Positions 3,482 through 37,717 of a DNA stretch of 41,828 nt are shown one piece after another. Below the pieces are notes generated by a model. It searched no databases. It was not told where the DNA came from and was given only the letters and a program-made list of their open reading frames with translations. A program made the position numbers and the translations under genes. This DNA is from a virus (lineage: Duplodnaviria; Heunggongvirae; Uroviricota; Caudoviricetes), in the IMG/VR virus record IMGVR_UViG_2541047798_000006; one strand, given 5' to 3'. Positions within the stretch are counted from its first letter, which is position 1; each line of letters starts with the position of its first letter.

Positions 3482-6400
3482 TCAGCTAATCGTGATGCCT
3501 GTAGTGGCTTTCTTCATCACCACAACCAGCAAATCGCTGATACTTGCTGTGGGATACCAGTTATTTACCAGCCATGCTGACACCGAAAACTCCAGTGTCA
3601 TGTGACCGTGACCGGCAGGCATATCAATAACGCCACTGTAAATCAGCGTATTATCCAGCGCGGTACGGTTATAAATTTCAGCACCGTTTTTCCGCACTAT
3701 CAGACGGCATGAGGAGTAAATATCAGTATGCTCTTTCTCATGTTTAGCGCCGCTGAATGCCACCGCCGGAATAACAATCTGCCGGTCAAACGGCTGATCG
3801 TCATAAACCCTGACGGTAATGGTTCCTGATGGCCACCGCTCCGGTGCACGGGAGTCCCGGGGGAAAGCTTTGCCCACTGTTTTAACGAGATCGCCTTCAA
3901 TCTGGTTCGCGGACAATTTTCCCAGAACCCGACAGTTCTCGTTAATCGTGACGTTGTTGAGCGTCCCGGAGTTCGCATTCACGTTACCGCTGATATCGGC
4001 ATTTTTCGCCGTCAGCCGCCCGTCCGGTGTCAGGGAAAATGCCGGAGGATTACCGCCGCTGGTAATGGTGGGGGCCGTCAGGCGTTTCAGGAACACTTCA
4101 TTCATGAATATCTGATCGCCCTGACCAACAAACATCGGCTTTGTGTTGCCATTCGCAGGATTAATCATCGCAATCCTGTCTGCTGCCAGCAGCACCTGAC
4201 TCTGCATGCCGTCAGGGGTGTTCTCAATACCGGCACCGATACCCGCAATATAAAGGCGTCCGTCCTGCATCTGCTGCAGCTTCACTGCCCACATGCTGTT
4301 CAGGTTATTATTTGTATCAACCTGAACCTTCTGTATCTGCTGGATCGCTGCACTCTGGTCTTCCAGTTTCTTATTGACGGTCTGTGTTATTTCATTGCTG
4401 ACATCCGTTATGGACGTCCTGATTTCAGTCAGGTCAGGCGCAAGCTGACCGTTATCAATCTGCGTCCACAGCTCCTGAGCCAGATGGGTTTTCCCTATCT
4501 CGCCTTTGAAAAAATCCAGATAGCCTGATGCATCATCACTCGGCTGACCGACAGCCTCCACGAATGCCGATTTGCCAACGGTGTTCACACTGCGAACGTA
4601 AAAATAATAATCATGGCCCGGTTTGATATTGATACTGGCGGCTATCCAGTACAGTGCCGTACCAAGATAACGCGCGCTGGTTTCAACCTGCCTGATATCC
4701 GCAATCCGTTTTTCCGAGAACCAGAACTCAAACTGTACCGTCGGATCATAAACCGCAAGATGCGGCGTGGCGGTTATCTGAAAATAGCCCGGCGTCAGCT
4801 CAATCCGCGACGGTGCTGCCGGTGCGGCAATCCGGAATGATACCGACGCCGGATCACCCTGCTGCCCCCAGGCATTTACCGCCCTGACTGTCAGCCTGTA
4901 GTTTCCCAGCGCCAGTTGCCTGAAGCGGTATGTGGTTTCCGTCGTCCGGGCCGTGCTGACCAGCCGCTCACTGCCGTCATCCGCTGCCACGGTCAGGCGA
5001 AGCATAAAGCTCACCCCCTTCACCACCTTCGGCGTATCCCAGCGCGCCAGCACCTGGTATTCCCCGCTGTCTGCGGTGACTTCTGCGGTCAGGTGCTGCA
5101 CTGCTGGCGGCGTGACACCGTTCACCGTTCCGCTCTGGTCGCCGTCAAAGTGCGCCCCGTTATCCACGATGGCTTCTTTCTCCGGCACATGCTGCACGGC
5201 AGTGATGGCATACGTGCCGTCATCGTTCTCACGGATACTCACACAGCGGAACAGGCGCTGGCGCAGCGTCGGCAGCTTCAGCCCCCATACGCTGTATTCG
5301 GCAACACCGTCAGGAACACGGCTCACTTTTACCTTCACGCCGTCGGTGACGGACTGAACCTCCACGCTGACCGGATTGCCACTTCCGTCAACCAGGCTTA
5401 TCAGCGTGGTACCGGAGGATGGCAGCGTGATTTCACGGTCGAGCGTCAGTGTCCGCGTCTGGCTGTTCACCGCCAGCACGCGCCCGCCGATGCTGATACC
5501 CGCATAGTCATCATCACAGATTTCAATGACATCGCCCGGTACATGGCGAAGCCCTTCTGCACCCACGCTGAAGTCCACGGTCTGCGTTTCCAGCAGCTCC
5601 GTTTTAATCAGCCACAGCCCGGCGCGGTGTGCCTGCCCCCGGCTGGTACAGCCAAAGGCATCCATCTTCGTGACGTTACGACCGTAACGGAGAATGGCCT
5701 GCGTATCTTCAACAAGCTCTGTCGCCGTCTCCCAGCCGTTATTCGGGTCAATCCAGTTCACCTCAACGGCATTATGGCGGTCCTTCAGGGCGCTGAAGCT
5801 GTAGCGGAACGGCGCGCCATCATCCGGCATCACCACATTACTGCGGTTATAGGTCCACACCTTATCCGACGGTCGGTCCTGCACGAACGTCAGCGTCTGC
5901 CCGTTCCATACCGGCATACAGCGCATCGCCGAGCAGAAATCACTGAGAACATCCCACGCCTTACGCTGTGTGGTCAGGTAGGCATTACAGGTGATGCGCG
6001 GCTCCGTGCCACCAAAGCCATCCGGCACTGACTGATCGCAATACTGGCCGATGACATACAGCGCCCATTTGTCCACATCCGCCGCACCAAGACGTTTCCC
6101 CATGCCGTAGCGCGGGTGGGTCAGCATATCCCACAGACACCAGGCCATGTTGTTGCTGTATGCCGGTTTAAACGTCCCGTCCCAGATACCGCTGTATTGC
6201 CGCGTCTGCGGGTTATAGTTCGATGGCACCTGCAGAATGCGCCCGCGAAGATGATAATTACGGCTCACCTGCTGGCTGCCGAACTGTTCCGAGTCCACCT
6301 GCACGCCGACCAGTGCCGTGTTCGGGTAGCACTGTTTCACATCGATGATTTCAGTGTATGACGACCAGAGCGTTTTGTTCTGCAGCTGGTCTGTGGTGCT

Positions 6401-9038: not shown

Positions 9039-9367
9039 CAGTTCACCACCTGTTCAAACTCTGCGCTGAACTCAACACGCAACATACTGACCCGCGACGA
9101 CCATTTTGCGCAGGTCACCTTTATCTGCCGCCAGTCATAAGGCGGCGTCCACAGAAAGGCTTTCCAGCCTCCGTGCTCTGCCAGAAACGATTCCAACGCC
9201 GTGGCCTCCCAACGGGGGACAGAAATCGTCACGCTGTACGTTTTCAGGTTGGCATTCAGCCCGGCAGGCGCGCGCTGGGAATAGCCATCACCAAAGCGCA
9301 CCTTCCTGACGGAAGGAGCCGAAGCCACATCCATACCGGGTTTCACTTTCCAGCGGAAGGTTTTCAT
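9038..9367 (-). CDS. M: tail tip protein M
   Basis: 109 aa, lambda M-like. Confidence 0.9.
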   Translation of the reverse strand: MKTFRWKVKPGMDVASAPSVRKVRFGDGYSQRAPAGLNANLKTYSVTISVPRWEATALESFLAEHGGWKAFLWTPPYDWRQIKVTCAKWSSRVSMLRVEFSAEFEQVVN

Positions 9368-11863
9368 CGTCCACCTCCGGAGAACAGACCACCATCACGC
9401 ATCTGCCCGGTCACAACATCCATTGCCGCCTTGCGGGCCATGTCATACACTGCCTTCAGCATCTGTGGACCTGGCAGACCATTCGTGCCGTCGTTATTAA
9501 TCACCACATGGTTATTCTGCTCAAACTTCCCGGACGCCTGCGACCGGCTGTCCGCCAGGCTGCCCGGTGTACCGACATAACCACCGGTGGCATAGCCGCG
9601 CATCAGCCGGTAGAGATTCCCCACGCCAATCCGGCTGGTTGCCTCCTTCGTGAAGACAAATTCACCACGGTGAACAATCCCCGCTGGCTCATATTTGCCG
9701 CCGGTTCCCGTAAATCCCCCTGTCGCAAAATGGAATTTCGCCGCAGCTGCCTGAATGGCTGTACCGCCTGACGCGGATGCGCCGCCACCAACAGCACCGC
9801 CAATGGCGCTGCCGATACTCCCGACAATCCCCACCATTGCCTGCTTAAGCAGAATTTCTGTCATCATGGACAGCACGGATCGGGTGAAGCTGCGCCAGTT
9901 TTGTTCACTGCCGGTCAGCATCGCCGCCATATTCTGTGCAATACCATCAAAGGTCTGCGTGGCTGCACTTTTAACCTGCGACATACTGTCCGTGGCGCTC
10001 TCTTCCCACTCACTCCAGCCTGACTTGAGGCCTGCCATCCAGCTCCCGCGAAGCTGGTCTTCAGCTGCCCAGGTCTTTTTCTGCTCTGACATGACGTTAT
10101 TCAGCGCCAGCGGATTATCGCCATACTGTTCCTTCAGACGCTGTTCCGTGGCGTCCCGCGCTGCCTGCCGGTCAGTCAGCCCCCGGTTTTTCGCATCAAT
10201 GGCTGCCCGTTTTGCCCGTTGTTGCTGTGCGAATTTATCCGCCTGCTGCGCCAGCGCATTCAGGTGCTCCTGATACGTGACCTTATCGCCAAGTGCAGCC
10301 AGCTGGCGTTTGTACTCCAGCGTCTCGTCTTTATGCGCCAGCAGGGATTTCTCCTGTGCGGACAGCTGGCGACGTTGTGCCGCCTCCTCCAGTACCGCGA
10401 ACTGACTTTCTGCCTTCCACAAATCCCGGCGCTGCTGGCTGATTTTCTCATTCGCTGTCTTCCTGACGATCGCCCGCAGACACCTTCACGCCGGACTGTT
10501 TCGGCTTTTTCAGCGTCGCTTCATAATCCTTTTTCGCCGCCGCCATCAGCGTGTTGTAATCTGCCTGCAGGATTTTCCCGTCTTTCAGTGCCTTGTTCAG
10601 TTCTTCCTGACGGGCGGTATATTTCTCCAGCGGCGTCTGCAGCCGTTCGTAAGCCTTCTGCGCCTCTTCGGTATATTTCAGCCGTGACGCTTCGGTATCG
10701 CTCTGCTGCTGCGCATTTTTGTCCTGTTGACTCTGCTGTTCAGCCTTCTTTCGGGCGGCTTCAAGCGCAAGACGGGCCTTTTCACGATCATCCCAGTAAC
10801 GCGCCCGCGCTTCATCGTTAACAAAATAATCATCCTTGCGCAGATTCCAGATGTCGTCCGCTTTCTTAAACGCAGCCTCTGCCTTAATCAGCATCTCCTG
10901 AGCGGTATCAGGACGACCAATATCCAGCACCGCATCCCACATGGATTTGAATGCCCGTGCTGTCCTGTCTGCCCAGGTTTCCAGCGTGCCCATGTTCTCT
11001 TTCAGGCGTCGGGTCTGGTCATCAAACCCTTTCGTTGCGGCCTCGTTCGCCGCCTGCAATGCCCCGGCTTCATCGCCGGAACGCTGCAACTGAGCAACAT
11101 ACGCAATCTGCTCCGCCGTCACGTTATGGAACTGGCGCGCCATCGCCGTCAGCCCCGACGTCGGGTCAGTGGTCAGCTTCCCGAAGGCTTCAGCGACCTT
11201 GTCCACCTCCACACCGGATGCAGAGGAGAAACGCGCCACACTCTGGCTGATGGACGCAATCTGAGCCTCACCGCTTACCCCCGCCTTAACCAGTGCACTG
11301 AGTGACTCGCTGGTCTGGTTAAACGTCAGCCCTGCAGCCTGCCCGGCTCTGGACAGGACCAGCATACGATCTGCCGTCAGTCCCGCCTGATTACCGGAAA
11401 GGACCAGCGTTTTGTTGAAATCGGACAGGGTTGAGTTACCCTGATACCAGGCATACGCCAGCGCACCGGTCGCCACCGCCAGCGAGGTGGCCCCGACCAT
11501 CGGCAGGGTGATCGCACCGGCAAGCCCCCGGAACATGGGGATCATCCCGCCGAAGGAGTCCTTAACCTGACCACCCTGTTGCAGCAGGATCAGCCACGGG
11601 CTTTGCCCGCCTGCAAGCTGCGTGGCCACGTCGGTGAACTGTGCAGGCAGCATACGCATGGCGGCTTTATACTGCCCGACGGAAATCCCCGCTTTCTGTG
11701 CAGCCAGCGCCTGTCGGCTCAGCGACTGTTCAACGACTGCCGCTGTTTTTTTCGCATCACTTTCCGTACCGGAAAAATGACGCCTGACTCTGGCCATCTG
11801 CTCGTCAAATCTGGCCGCATCCAGACTTAAATCAACGACCAGATCGCCTACCGGTTCAGCCAT
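9364..11863 (-). pseudogene. H: tail tape measure protein H, split into two reading frames
   Basis: N-terminal piece 10448..11863 (471 aa, ends TGA at 10448) and C-terminal piece 9364..10422 (352 aa, TTG-initiated in the ORF track) are both lambda-H-like but in different frames; the second frame is open upstream to 10485. Confidence 0.7.
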
Positions 11864-29083: not shown

Positions 29084-30133
29084 TTACCCAAGCACGCCAG
29101 TTGCAAAGGCGTGATCAAGAAAACGAAAAATTAAATCAACCTGAGAACCATGCTTTTGTTCGAACGCCAGAGGATCCGCATGAAGCTCGTTGTGATGCTC
29201 CCGACACAGCGGTAGCGTGAAAATATCGTGAGATTTTGTCCCCATTCCGCCCTGACCATGACCAATCAGGTGATGGGGATCGTCGGCTGGCTTACCACAA
29301 CACGCACACGGCTGTGTCTTCACCCAGCGTGTGTATTTCTCGTTAACCCAGCGGCGACGTTTAGGTCGTTTCATGAAAGATTCCGGAGACTCAGGATCAA
29401 CGGCAATGCTGACCACCGTCTTTTCCTGTGGTGGGTTCTGTTGCTGGTGGGCGTGAGGCAGCGGCGCAATATTTTTTGTGCGCTGTTTCAGTATGCTGGT
29501 GGCGGTCTGCTCTCCCGGTACGATGTCGCTTTCACGGTACATTGAGCGGATTTTTTCCGCACGCAACCCCAGCGAACGACGTAATACCGCTTCCGGTAGC
29601 GCGTCCGCCACCTGATTGCGGACCGCCCACCAGGATAATTCAGCCAAAGATAATTCACGCTCCTGCGTACCGCTTATTGCGTGACCGATGACGTCAATCA
29701 TCCATGCTGACAGGTTTTGATGAGCAAGTTGCCCGAGTGATTCGGATGTCTGGTCACGCAGCTGGTTGTCGCAGTGCCAGCACAACACCATTGCGCCGGT
29801 ACCATAACGGTGAATGACGGTTTCGCTGTGATGATAATCGCCGTGTGGCCACTGGCAGGATTTAATATGGCGCAACAGCCAGTCAGACAATGCACCAGCA
29901 CCACCAGCAGCACGAATTACCCGTGCGTTACTGAAAAACGGCAGCAATGTTTTGTCTTCCACCAGCGGCTGGCGAACGGCAGGAACGACCCCGGACGGCA
30001 GATTACGCATGCTTTTCGGTTCCGGCTCCACCAGTAGCCGGGTATTGTGGAATACCGGCATGGATTCACGGCCCGGCTTAACGATCACCAGCCCGAGTTC
30101 CGGTACCAGAACAGGTCGAAGTAATACCCGCAC
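29084..30133 (-). CDS. DUF968/YdfU-like protein with C-terminal HNH-like Cys/His cluster
   Basis: 349 aa; C-terminus CACCGKPADDPHHLIGHGQGGMGTKSHDIFTLPLCREHHNELH; GTG start. Confidence 0.6.
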   Translation of the reverse strand: MRVLLRPVLVPELGLVIVKPGRESMPVFHNTRLLVEPEPKSMRNLPSGVVPAVRQPLVEDKTLLPFFSNARVIRAAGGAGALSDWLLRHIKSCQWPHGDYHHSETVIHRYGTGAMVLCWHCDNQLRDQTSESLGQLAHQNLSAWMIDVIGHAISGTQERELSLAELSWWAVRNQVADALPEAVLRRSLGLRAEKIRSMYRESDIVPGEQTATSILKQRTKNIAPLPHAHQQQNPPQEKTVVSIAVDPESPESFMKRPKRRRWVNEKYTRWVKTQPCACCGKPADDPHHLIGHGQGGMGTKSHDIFTLPLCREHHNELHADPLAFEQKHGSQVDLIFRFLDHAFATGVLG

Positions 30134-30134
30134 G

Positions 30135-30413
30135 TTACCTCCAGATGCGTTGCTGGAATGTACGGGACGGACGCGGTGGGCGTTCGGAGTAAGGCAATCT
30201 GACTGAGATTATCCAGTGACGGTAGTCGAGACTAAGAGCTTTCTTAACCTCGTATCCGCGCCTGCGGTAACACTGAATTATCCATTCAGCCTGCTCTTCA
30301 GTGCATGGAGGGTGCTGGAACCATTCAGACTTGAATGCGTGAGAATACCGCTCGTGCGTGCAGGCAAGAACGGGCGAATTATCAGAATTGTAATATTTTA
30401 CGTTGCGTGCCAT
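30135..30413 (-). CDS. hypothetical protein translationally coupled to the DUF968 gene
   Basis: 92 aa; stop at 30135-30137 one nt from the downstream start. Confidence 0.45.
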   Translation of the reverse strand: MARNVKYYNSDNSPVLACTHERYSHAFKSEWFQHPPCTEEQAEWIIQCYRRRGYEVKKALSLDYRHWIISVRLPYSERPPRPSRTFQQRIWR

Positions 30414-35275: not shown

Positions 35276-35293
35276 TGTTAGACTTTTCTAACA
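35276..35293. promoter_or_regulatory. candidate operator palindrome in the repressor/Cro intergenic region
   Basis: TGTTAGActttTCTAACA perfect 7-bp arms; related half-sites at 35786-35805. Confidence 0.5.
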
Positions 35294-35785: not shown

Positions 35786-35805
35786 TTGTTAGACCAACCT
35801 AACAA
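35786..35805. promoter_or_regulatory. second operator-like palindrome downstream of repressor gene
   Basis: TTGTTAG-accaac-CTAACAA; a third partial copy at about 35823-35838. Confidence 0.4.
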
Positions 35806-35918
35806 AAAACACTTGCCTCTCATGTTAGGTTATTCTAAATTACTTTCCATCAAGACACCGCACGGTGTTCTCAGCAAACAGTTCCGCTACCCCGGCGTTA
35901 AGGGGAAATGAGGTCAGC

Positions 35919-36074
35919 ATGGATACTATCGATCTTGGCAACAACGAATCTCTGGTATGCGGCGTGTTTCCCAACCAAGACGGCACGTTCACCGCGATGA
36001 CGTATACCAAAAGCAAAACGTTTAAAACCGAAGCTGGCGCGCATCGCTGGCTGGAAAGAAATTCAGGTGAGTGA
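35919..36074 (+). CDS. YdfA-like small protein
   Basis: 51 aa MDTIDLGNNESLVCGVFPNQDGTFTAMTYTKSKTFKTEAGAHRWLERNSGE. Confidence 0.6.
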   Translation: MDTIDLGNNESLVCGVFPNQDGTFTAMTYTKSKTFKTEAGAHRWLERNSGE

Positions 36075-36075
36075 T

Positions 36076-36204
36076 ATGGATTTCGACGCAATCATGGAAA
36101 AGGCTTACGAAGAATACTTCGAAGGCCTTGCCGAAGGCGAAGAAGCTCTCAGCTTCAGCGAATTTAAACAGGCGCTTTCCAGTTCGGCAAAAGCTAACAA
36201 CTGA
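36076..36204 (+). CDS. YdfB-like small protein (42 aa, not in ORF track)
   Basis: MDFDAIMEKAYEEYFEGLAEGEEALSFSEFKQALSSSAKANN read directly after the ydfA-like stop. Confidence 0.5.
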   Translation: MDFDAIMEKAYEEYFEGLAEGEEALSFSEFKQALSSSAKANN

Positions 36205-36358
36205 GAGGTTTATGATGGAATTGAGAGTTTGTTTCAAACTCTCAATAAACCAGAGGCAGGTAAGGAGCGTTAAATTATTGCTTGAAAGCAATAAGATCAC
36301 TCAATCTCACCGCTATAGGCATTCCATCTGAGCATGAGGGTACGCCAGAAAATATCGT

Positions 36359-36829
36359 TTATGTGCAAAACACAGTATGGATTTTCGTCGGGAAGGAGTT
36401 GCCCTTCCATGGGGAGCAAAATATTAGCAGATACCAGTTTTTTATATCAGAATCATTGCGTACAGCATGGATCACAGGATAGTTCCTCGATAATGCCGTA
36501 ATAAGAATTTTTTTCTGACCCGCAGTCAAGGAATCGATAACTGCATTGATATGACTGATTGTTTTTTGTTCTCTTGTATTGTTCCGGTGACTTCGCCAGA
36601 CCTTACGAAGAAATAAAGCTAAACGTTGGAGATTTATAGCCAGCACAAAAGAAAAGGCAAAAACGAATACCGGGTAAATATAAGGAATGCTGATTTTGTC
36701 TTGAACATACTCCGGTACAGAATCAGGCATAAAGAGCAATATCAAAACAAAGATAATAAGCATATACATAAGGCGCTCTAAGGGTTCGTTACTGAATAAC
36801 TTGCTCAACAAGCCGAATACATCAGGCAT
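36359..36829 (-). CDS. hypothetical membrane protein, antisense to the early-left operon
   Basis: 156-aa ORF, two N-terminal hydrophobic segments, AT-rich, GAGAG SD-like sequence upstream. Confidence 0.35.
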   Translation of the reverse strand: MPDVFGLLSKLFSNEPLERLMYMLIIFVLILLFMPDSVPEYVQDKISIPYIYPVFVFAFSFVLAINLQRLALFLRKVWRSHRNNTREQKTISHINAVIDSLTAGQKKILITALSRNYPVIHAVRNDSDIKNWYLLIFCSPWKGNSFPTKIHTVFCT

Positions 36830-37140
36830 ATTAATAACTCTCTACTGTAAGGGTATTAAAATGCTATCACAGACTCTCGCTGTAGGGGTATAGCCGAGAC
36901 CACCGAGCCTGAAGTGGTAAAAAGACAGGCACACAACACGAAAGCGCACGGCGAGGCTGTTAGTTCATAAATGGTCTGTCGTTAAATTTTCGTCGACCGT
37001 GCGCTTCCGGTTGTGGCAATCCGCGAAATGGCGCGGCGGTAAGTATGGCGGGGTTATTCCTTCCCCGTTGAGGACACCGGGTTGTCAGGTTGACCATACG
37101 CTTAAGTGACAACCCCGCTGCAGCGCCCTCTGTTATCAAT

Positions 37141-37198
37141 TTTCTGGTGACGTTTGGCGGTATCAGTTTTACTCCGTGACTGCTCTGCCGCCCTTTTT
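37141..37198 (+). ncRNA. dicF: DicF sRNA (ftsZ-targeting)
   Basis: tttctggtgacgtttggcggtatcagttttactccgtgactgctctgccgccctttttaa matches the DicF sequence from memory. Confidence 0.8.
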
Positions 37199-37372
37199 AA
37201 AGTGAATTTTGTGATGCGGTGAATGCGGCTGAGCGCACGCGGAACAGTTAAAACCGAAAACTGTGTTATGGGTGGATTCTCTGTATCCGGCGTTAATTGT
37301 TAACTGGTTAACGTCACCTGGAGGCACCAGGCACCGCATCAACAAAGTTCATTTGTAAAAATGGAGATAATT

Positions 37373-37594
37373 ATGATTGCTCATCACTTCGGAACTGATG
37401 AGATTCCTCGTCAGTGCGTGACTCCCGGTGATTATGTTATTCATAAAGGAAGAACATATATTGCTTCGGTAAACAACATTAAAAAACAACGGCTCTATAT
37501 TCGTGATTTTTCCACACAACACTGTATTAAGGAAACCATGATTAAAGTCTTCCTTGGTCGTGATGGTTTACCTGTAAAAGCAGAGTCATGGTGA
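37373..37594 (+). CDS. hypothetical small protein in the dicB position
   Basis: 73 aa from the ATG at 37373 (GGAGA SD); not similar to DicB as remembered. Confidence 0.5.
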
Positions 37595-37717
37595 GCAGTA
37601 ATAAAATAACTGCCACAATACGACATTCAGCTTAATGAATACATCAGATTTGATTCTTATATGCCAGCAATGGCAGGGATTTGTTCACCCTTAAATCTGT
37701 AATGAGGTTAAAACAAA

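Follow-up and report, generated by a model that had tools for sequence, protein, structure and literature searches.

The 41,828-nucleotide stretch of DNA in IMG/VR virus record IMGVR_UViG_2541047798_000006 (hereafter the window) carries, on the strand opposite to its early-left operon, an open reading frame (ORF) of 156 amino acids that is very probably a copy of the lambdoid-phage gene sieB (superinfection exclusion B), lying in its canonical place, frameshifted, and probably non-functional or crippled. A preliminary description of the window, made from the letters alone, had presented the ORF as either an inserted exclusion or abortive-infection-type gene or a spurious antisense frame. SieB has been known since the early 1990s, and so has its position antisense to the early-left operons of lambdoid phages; the gene is a textbook one in family, orientation and regulation, the protein is already annotated, and the finding is to that extent already known. 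Our only additions are the diagnosis of the frameshift and the recognition of conserved sas and Esc features around it.

Family identity and frameshift of the reverse-strand ORF

The minus-strand ORF is present as first described, with an ATG start, and both of the hydrophobic N-terminal segments attributed to it were recovered, Kyte-Doolittle averages over 19-residue windows reaching 1.6 or more at residues ~15-42 and ~45-74. Its AT-richness was also confirmed (39.6% G+C over the sieB span 36297-36829 versus 51.5% in the whole window). The protein matched Pfam family PF14163, SieB, scoring 50.2 bits where the gathering threshold is 26 (residues 21-121), and phrog_6399, “SieB superinfection exclusion,” with an E value of 1.3e-31 (residues 3-117). 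All 15 database homologues of the ORF carry PF14163, the RefSeq entry for the identical protein (WP_021538001.1) is named “super-infection exclusion protein B,” and the exact 156-residue protein is found on 209 public contigs under the name SieB. A PDB sequence search with the family profile returned nothing meaningful. Given PF14163, phrog_6399, the identity to lambda and Rac SieB and the RefSeq name, it was the exclusion-type alternative that was borne out; the spurious-frame alternative is rejected, since the family matches are strong and the ORF is conserved among its homologues.

The ORF is no oddity of insertion either, because an antisense position within the early-left operon is the standard location of sieB in lambda, P22, and Rac. 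In lambda, sieB (plus strand) lies between N and orf28/ral (both minus) inside the pL operon; in P22 it lies (plus) between gene 24 and ral (both minus); and in Rac the order is racR, ydaG, ydaF (minus, DUF1391), sieB (plus, the other strand), the small RNA (sRNA) gene kilS, and kilR (minus). The window copy likewise stands downstream of the repressor, inside the early-left operon and on the opposite strand. sieB is the sole reverse gene in the early-left operons of lambda, P22, Rac, the Rac-like prophage of Escherichia coli EC261, and prophages of Yersinia, Citrobacter, and Hafnia; the window has the same plan, and the reverse orientation is ordinary.

Comparison with the closest relatives, which are 177 amino acids long, revealed that the window protein diverges after residue 131. 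The missing C-terminus (...LLPMEGQLLPDENPYCVLHINDIFWRTLMLRWNAYSGEIE) is encoded on the same strand in another frame, as a 40-residue ORF at 36297..36419, and the addition of one A to a run of six yields a 177-residue protein ending ...RWNAYSGEIE at 36297 that matches both the database homologue P0002 and the EC261 protein to the last residue. Intact alleles have 562 bases where the query has 561, and sieB of EC261 spans 534 nucleotides encoding 177 amino acids. With 131 of 177 codons authentic, the window copy falls short of a full-length protein with the conserved C-terminal domain. The parts of the gene are as follows.

36359..36829, minus strand: truncated sieB ORF, 156 amino acids, comprising 131 authentic SieB codons and 25 out-of-frame codons (Pfam, PHROG, lambda/Rac identity, RefSeq)
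36438..36443, minus strand: frameshift site, a run of six A (T6 on the plus strand) versus A7 in intact alleles, where the mRNA reads A_AAA_AAC (repair test, intact alleles)
36297..36437, minus strand: displaced remainder of the sieB frame, 46 C-terminal codons of the 177-residue protein plus the stop, including the 40-residue ORF (A-insertion test)

The allele was found in 13 of 5426 complete E. coli genomes. Nine of these have the A6 run and are 100% identical to the window over the gene; three (EC261, ETEC4088, and 2017.18.04CC) are intact, with one extra base and an annotated 534-nucleotide gene; and in MS 119-7 sieB is split by an IS3 element. Other truncated sieB forms are present in public data, and the allele shows repeated decay. 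The occurrence of the same A6 run in nine complete genomes, and of its protein on the 209 contigs, marks it as a genuine mutation that is passed on, as opposed to an artefact of assembly. One further database homologue, P0003 (179 amino acids), looks like a TGA=Trp gene-call artefact on a short metagenome contig and was ignored.

An AlphaFold model of the intact 177-residue allele had a mean pLDDT (predicted local distance difference test) of 82.7, with values of ~90 in the C-terminal half, and placed a first helix at residues 15-33 and a long helix at 51-99, in agreement with the hydrophobicity profile that this is a small protein with N-terminal membrane-spanning segments. From the model, the intact product is predicted to cross the membrane with two N-terminal helices, followed by a long stalk helix and, in the cytoplasm, a winged-helix-like domain. 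This domain is halved by the shift at codon 131/132, which also removes the near-invariant residues W162, R168, W169, and G174. Exclusion activity was probably lost or crippled because the predicted cytoplasmic domain is cut in two, and this copy of sieB appears to be decaying.

Accessory sequences and a working model of their regulation

When P22-like phages superinfect, SieB halts macromolecular synthesis midway through their lytic cycle (PMC10883804). Its inhibitor, Esc, is read in frame from within sieB (PMC3224144), and the sas antisense RNA switches translation between SieB and Esc (PMC12197685, PMC7067206). For Esc and sas we relied on the P22 GenBank annotation and on secondary papers. 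Three stretches in and around the window sieB correspond to elements of this system.

36845..36890, minus strand: homologue of the promoter and transcription start annotated for P22 sieB (P22 annotation; alignments with EC261, Rac, lambda, P22, Yersinia, and Hafnia)
36761..36763, minus strand: codon for Met23, which pairs with the start of P22 esc, internal to and in frame with sieB (protein alignment, P22 annotation)
36840..36933, plus strand: sas-like stretch including a conserved ACCAC...GTGGT hairpin, 80% identical to nucleotides 23-113 of P22 sas (sequence taken from Table 2 of PMC13397905)

Approximately 100 nucleotides upstream of the sieB ATG align with the corresponding DNA of EC261, Rac, lambda, P22, Yersinia, and Hafnia. 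The promoter-homologous region has 16 invariant bases; the alignment contains an invariant TACCCCTACAGCGAGA at 36890-36875 (minus strand), TGATAGCAT at 36869-36861 (minus), where the P22 -10 region aligns, and a second copy of TACCCTTACAG at 36855-36845 (minus). In the P22 record the sieB promoter occupies 29690-29720, and the RNA begins at 29727. By this homology, 36845-36890 would function as the promoter, and transcription of the window sieB would begin near 36854. A direct repeat, TACCCYTACAG followed by GAGAG-like bases, is present upstream of sieB at 36845-36855 and 36880-36890 (minus); both copies also occur in P22, lambda, and Rac, and a promoter element, a sas structure, or a binding site was considered for it.

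In the P22 annotation esc (29830..30336) lies inside sieB (29758..30336), with its internal in-frame start 24 codons in. The protein alignment puts this start at Met23 of the window protein, pointing to an internal Esc start here as well; among relatives, M21 is invariant and M23 nearly so. The Esc and SieB products are both truncated in this copy. The sas-like stretch is conserved in seven of the eight loci. Conservation of the sas-like element and of the Esc start in lambda, P22, Rac, and this E. coli lineage suggests that the SieB/Esc/sas circuit is general.

These homologies suggest a working model in which the DicA-like repressor would keep the plus-strand operon silent in the lysogen while sieB would be transcribed from its own promoter. 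An intact sieB would yield a small inner-membrane protein that, to judge by published work on P22 and lambda, aborts lytic growth of superinfecting lambdoid phages through a midway shutdown of macromolecular synthesis. Esc, an N-terminally shortened product begun at the internal Met, would serve as the inhibitor of SieB, and a sas antisense RNA from the operon strand would shift translation from SieB to Esc, sparing the resident phage from self-killing. On derepression, plus-strand transcription would run antisense through sieB, producing the sas-like RNA and then DicF and kil.

Activity of the truncated allele

Several points weigh against the interpretation of this ORF as a sieB gene with a conserved regulatory apparatus and a lost function. 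NCBIfam and PADLOC models gave no match to the SieB ORF, a generic sigma-70 consensus scan did not flag the promoter-homologous region, and the sas-like hairpin displayed no covariation, all of its pairs being invariant or changed on one side only. The loss of exclusion is deduced from the sequence and the structural model, and both expression and exclusion at this locus are predictions. The A6 allele, moreover, occurs on 209 contigs with an intact 5' region, and residual or altered activity of the membrane part is possible. It is nonetheless unlikely that the 156-residue protein continues to act in exclusion or abortive infection, with its activity in the N-terminal membrane part and a C-terminal domain that is dispensable or only regulatory. 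In favor of this reading, the allele keeps the promoter-homologous region, the start codon, the two hydrophobic segments, and 131 authentic residues intact, the exact sequence is on the 209 public contigs, and Rac SieB is likewise shorter (162 amino acids); yet the four near-invariant residues that are lost are kept also in lambda and Rac SieB, and the break falls midway in a confidently predicted domain. The same allele has been destroyed independently by IS3 in MS 119-7 and by other truncations, a pattern that fits decay and not selection, and the nine complete genomes, being 100% identical over the gene, may represent a single clone.

It is very improbable that the frameshift is bypassed, with an in-phase A_AAA_AAC -1 slippery heptamer or polymerase slippage giving some full-length SieB as a mode of expression or a phase switch. 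The heptamer does lie in the correct phase, and a -1 shift on it gives the authentic C-terminus with a single K-to-N change, but no stimulatory structure follows it (z = 0.34 and -0.37 versus shuffles, the sole hairpin starting ~30 nucleotides off), no Shine-Dalgarno-like element precedes it, and the intact relatives simply have A7 with the same flanks and no sign of an evolved device. In E. coli, moreover, A_AAA_AAC shifts weakly relative to A_AAA_AAG. There is a correspondingly slim chance that the A6 allele is alive, most ribosomes or transcripts making a membrane-only stub and a minority the full-length protein, and that the homopolymer forms a reversible (A6<->A7) or translational switch; if true, the A run would tune an otherwise costly abortive-infection gene. 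Barely credible is the suggestion that the ORF is a spurious antisense frame or the frameshift a homopolymer sequencing error. The region is AT-rich and homopolymer indels are common in assemblies, but the family matches are strong, the homologues are conserved across genera in the same context, the A6 run is identical in nine independently assembled complete genomes, and the exact protein recurs on the 209 contigs.

The main value of reading the ORF as a frameshifted sieB lies in correct annotation, with little beyond it: the RefSeq 156-residue “SieB” is a frameshift truncation of a 177-residue gene, and counts of prophage defence genes should enter it as a probable pseudogene.

The ydfB-dicF interval and comparison with known loci

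The whole window is identical to positions 891309-933136 of the E. coli AR_0017 chromosome and contains a nearly complete lambdoid prophage, with tail, head, lysis, Q-type antiterminator, and replication genes leading to the immunity region, the early-left genes, xis, and int. The gene order near the ORF is dicA-like repressor, ydfA (DUF1391), ydfB, sieB (opposite strand), DicF sRNA, kil, exonuclease, xis, and int. The features surrounding sieB are listed below.

35919..36204, plus strand: ydfA (DUF1391) and ydfB, operon genes upstream of the cassette, with the ydfB stop at 36204 (Pfam DUF1391, E = 1.9e-29; RefSeq annotation)
36205..36919, no strand assigned: cassette of 39.7% G+C replacing ydfC and its downstream DNA of K-12 Qin (blastn breakpoints, G+C, junction alignment)
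36220..36246, no strand assigned: perfect hairpin with a 12-base-pair stem (36220-36231/36235-36246), a 3-nucleotide loop, and no U-tract, in the ydfB-sieB convergent spacer
36275..36294, no strand assigned: second hairpin, 9-base-pair stem (36275-36283/36286-36294), directly 3' of the intact-frame sieB stop
37142..37193, plus strand: DicF sRNA, downstream on the operon strand (Rfam RF00039, 76.7 bits versus a cut-off of 48, E = 2.8e-16, full length 1-52)
37373..37594, plus strand: kil, a Rac KilR-type FtsZ inhibitor, the next operon gene (NCBIfam NF008465, 140 bits versus a cut-off of 92; phrog_294)

The breakpoints of the cassette were determined by blastn against K-12 Qin, Ecol_545, Rac, and EC261 together with a junction alignment. 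Homology to K-12 Qin (84%) extends to exactly 36204, the ydfB stop, and resumes at 36920 (95%), continuing through DicF to 37353; the interval 36205-36919 has none, and the ydfB-dicF region is therefore not collinear with Qin. Window positions 35881-36948 are 97.5% identical to the Rac-like prophage of EC261, and positions 37188-37609 resemble the kilR region of Rac (82%). By these alignments the prophage is a mosaic of Rac and Qin. The preliminary description had expected a ydfC-like gene in the interval, an expectation centred on K-12 Qin; no similarity to YdfC was found. Between the ydfB stop and DicF the plus strand holds only the two short ORFs noted there, one of 39 amino acids, which is real but starts at 36212 and not 36213, and a TTG-initiated one of 66 amino acids, present at 36282..36482. 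Neither had a Pfam or PHROG match, and the 39-residue ORF gave no BLASTP alignment with K-12 YdfC. A ydfC remnant was rejected, there being no protein similarity and Qin DNA homology stopping at the ydfB stop, and both ORFs were treated as spurious, since they are family-less, overlap a hairpin, and lie antisense to sieB.

The larger hairpin had been described as a 9-base-pair perfect stem just upstream of the ORF. It is real and perfect, with a stem of 12 base pairs, and it lies 3' of the minus-strand gene. It is the longest true stem-loop in the window, with an energy of -16 kcal/mol and a z of about -5 versus shuffles. Both hairpins stand in a 92-nucleotide spacer where ydfB and sieB converge, bounded by the ydfB stop at 36204 and, on the sieB side, by the stop codon of the intact-length frame (36297-36299). 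Lambda and Rac lack such a spacer, their genes abutting or overlapping there. Both hairpins occur also in EC261, and none was found 3' of sieB in Yersinia, Hafnia, or Citrobacter, so that they characterise this E. coli allele, not the family as a whole. A generic terminator scan flagged neither of them, and since they have no U-tract neither is called an intrinsic terminator; the second is possibly a weak sieB terminator, and the pair may act as transcript-end stabilisers, RNase sites, or weak bidirectional terminators.

The ydfB-dicF/kil interval of Qin/Rac-like prophages is a variable slot, frequently occupied by unrelated reverse-oriented small genes; its flanks were matched in 4597 of the 5426 E. 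coli genomes. Its contents include ydfC only (K-12), ydfC with a reverse gene of 134 amino acids, nothing annotated, sieB (the 13 genomes), a forward 129-residue with a reverse 61-residue gene (O157:H7), and a reverse 66-residue gene (O111). The other reverse genes in the slot are unrelated to SieB, and the small ones of O157:H7 and O111 were rejected as sieB remnants for lack of similarity. The 134-residue gene, found in many ydfC-type prophages, occupies the sieB position in E. coli Ecol_545 (3689..4093, minus strand) and is a member of phrog_1244, a family of unknown function. Its SLATT-like matches are weak (NCBIfam SLATT_5, E = 0.002; PADLOC RTasSLATT, E = 0.006), and it may be another membrane defence effector. 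The Ecol_545 locus retains the sas-like hairpin beside it.

Downstream of DicF, a dicB fragment (37263-37346, an annotated pseudogene without its C-terminus) is followed directly by the Rac-type kil at 37373-37594, and this boundary just 3' of DicF marks a Qin/Rac recombination junction. DicF here occupies the slot of the kilS sRNA in Rac of K-12, and Rac homology to the window begins only in the last ~10 nucleotides of kilS and continues into kilR. A sub-threshold Rfam match to STnc100 (39.2 bits versus 47) lies between DicF and kil, at 37195-37380. Two TGTTAG-N6-CTAACA palindromes, one in the gap between the cro-like and dicA-like genes (35276-35293) and one between the dicA-like gene and ydfA (35787-35804), look like repressor operators on either side of the immunity gene. 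The identical RefSeq record also annotates a frameshift in the tail tape measure gene (9364-11863, minus strand), and this frameshift together with that of sieB suggests that the prophage is decaying or defective.

Among known systems, the nearest to the window gene is the intact allele of EC261 (WP_050483990.1; database cluster P0002/P0024), which is 99.1% identical in DNA over the gene, holds the same position in a Rac-like prophage, and shares the ydfA-like and ydfB-like flanks, both hairpins, and the conserved upstream region. It differs in having A7 and the full 177-residue protein, a LexA-type CI repressor, no DicF segment, and an onward order of kilR-ydaE-racC-recE. Rac sieB of E. coli K-12 (b1353) shares the arrangement of repressor, DUF1391 gene, antisense sieB, sRNA, and kilR, with 38% identity in protein and, across the upstream region and the 5' end of the gene, 78% in DNA. 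Its protein has 162 residues and its 3' end overlaps ydaF, and Rac carries kilS where the window has DicF. Lambda SieB (NP_597779.1) is 42% identical over residues 3-119, belongs to the same Pfam family, is likewise antisense inside the pL operon, and shares the conserved upstream promoter and sas-like sequence. The lambda gene, however, abuts N and ral without intergenic hairpins and encodes 184 amino acids as annotated; the window copy carries a frameshift and has ydfB and DicF as its neighbours. The likeness to P22 extends to a match of the window protein to the phrog_1301 profile, but protein identity is only ~25%, P22 is a Salmonella phage in which gene 24 and ral are the neighbours, and in the window the frame is broken. 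The dicA-ydfABC-dicF-dicB operon of K-12 Qin shares with the window, at 84-95%, homologous DNA for the dicA-like repressor, for ydfA and ydfB, and for the DicF region. Qin has ydfC and no reverse gene; in the window, 36205-36919 takes the place of the Qin ydfC segment, and a mere fragment of dicB precedes a kil gene of the Rac type.
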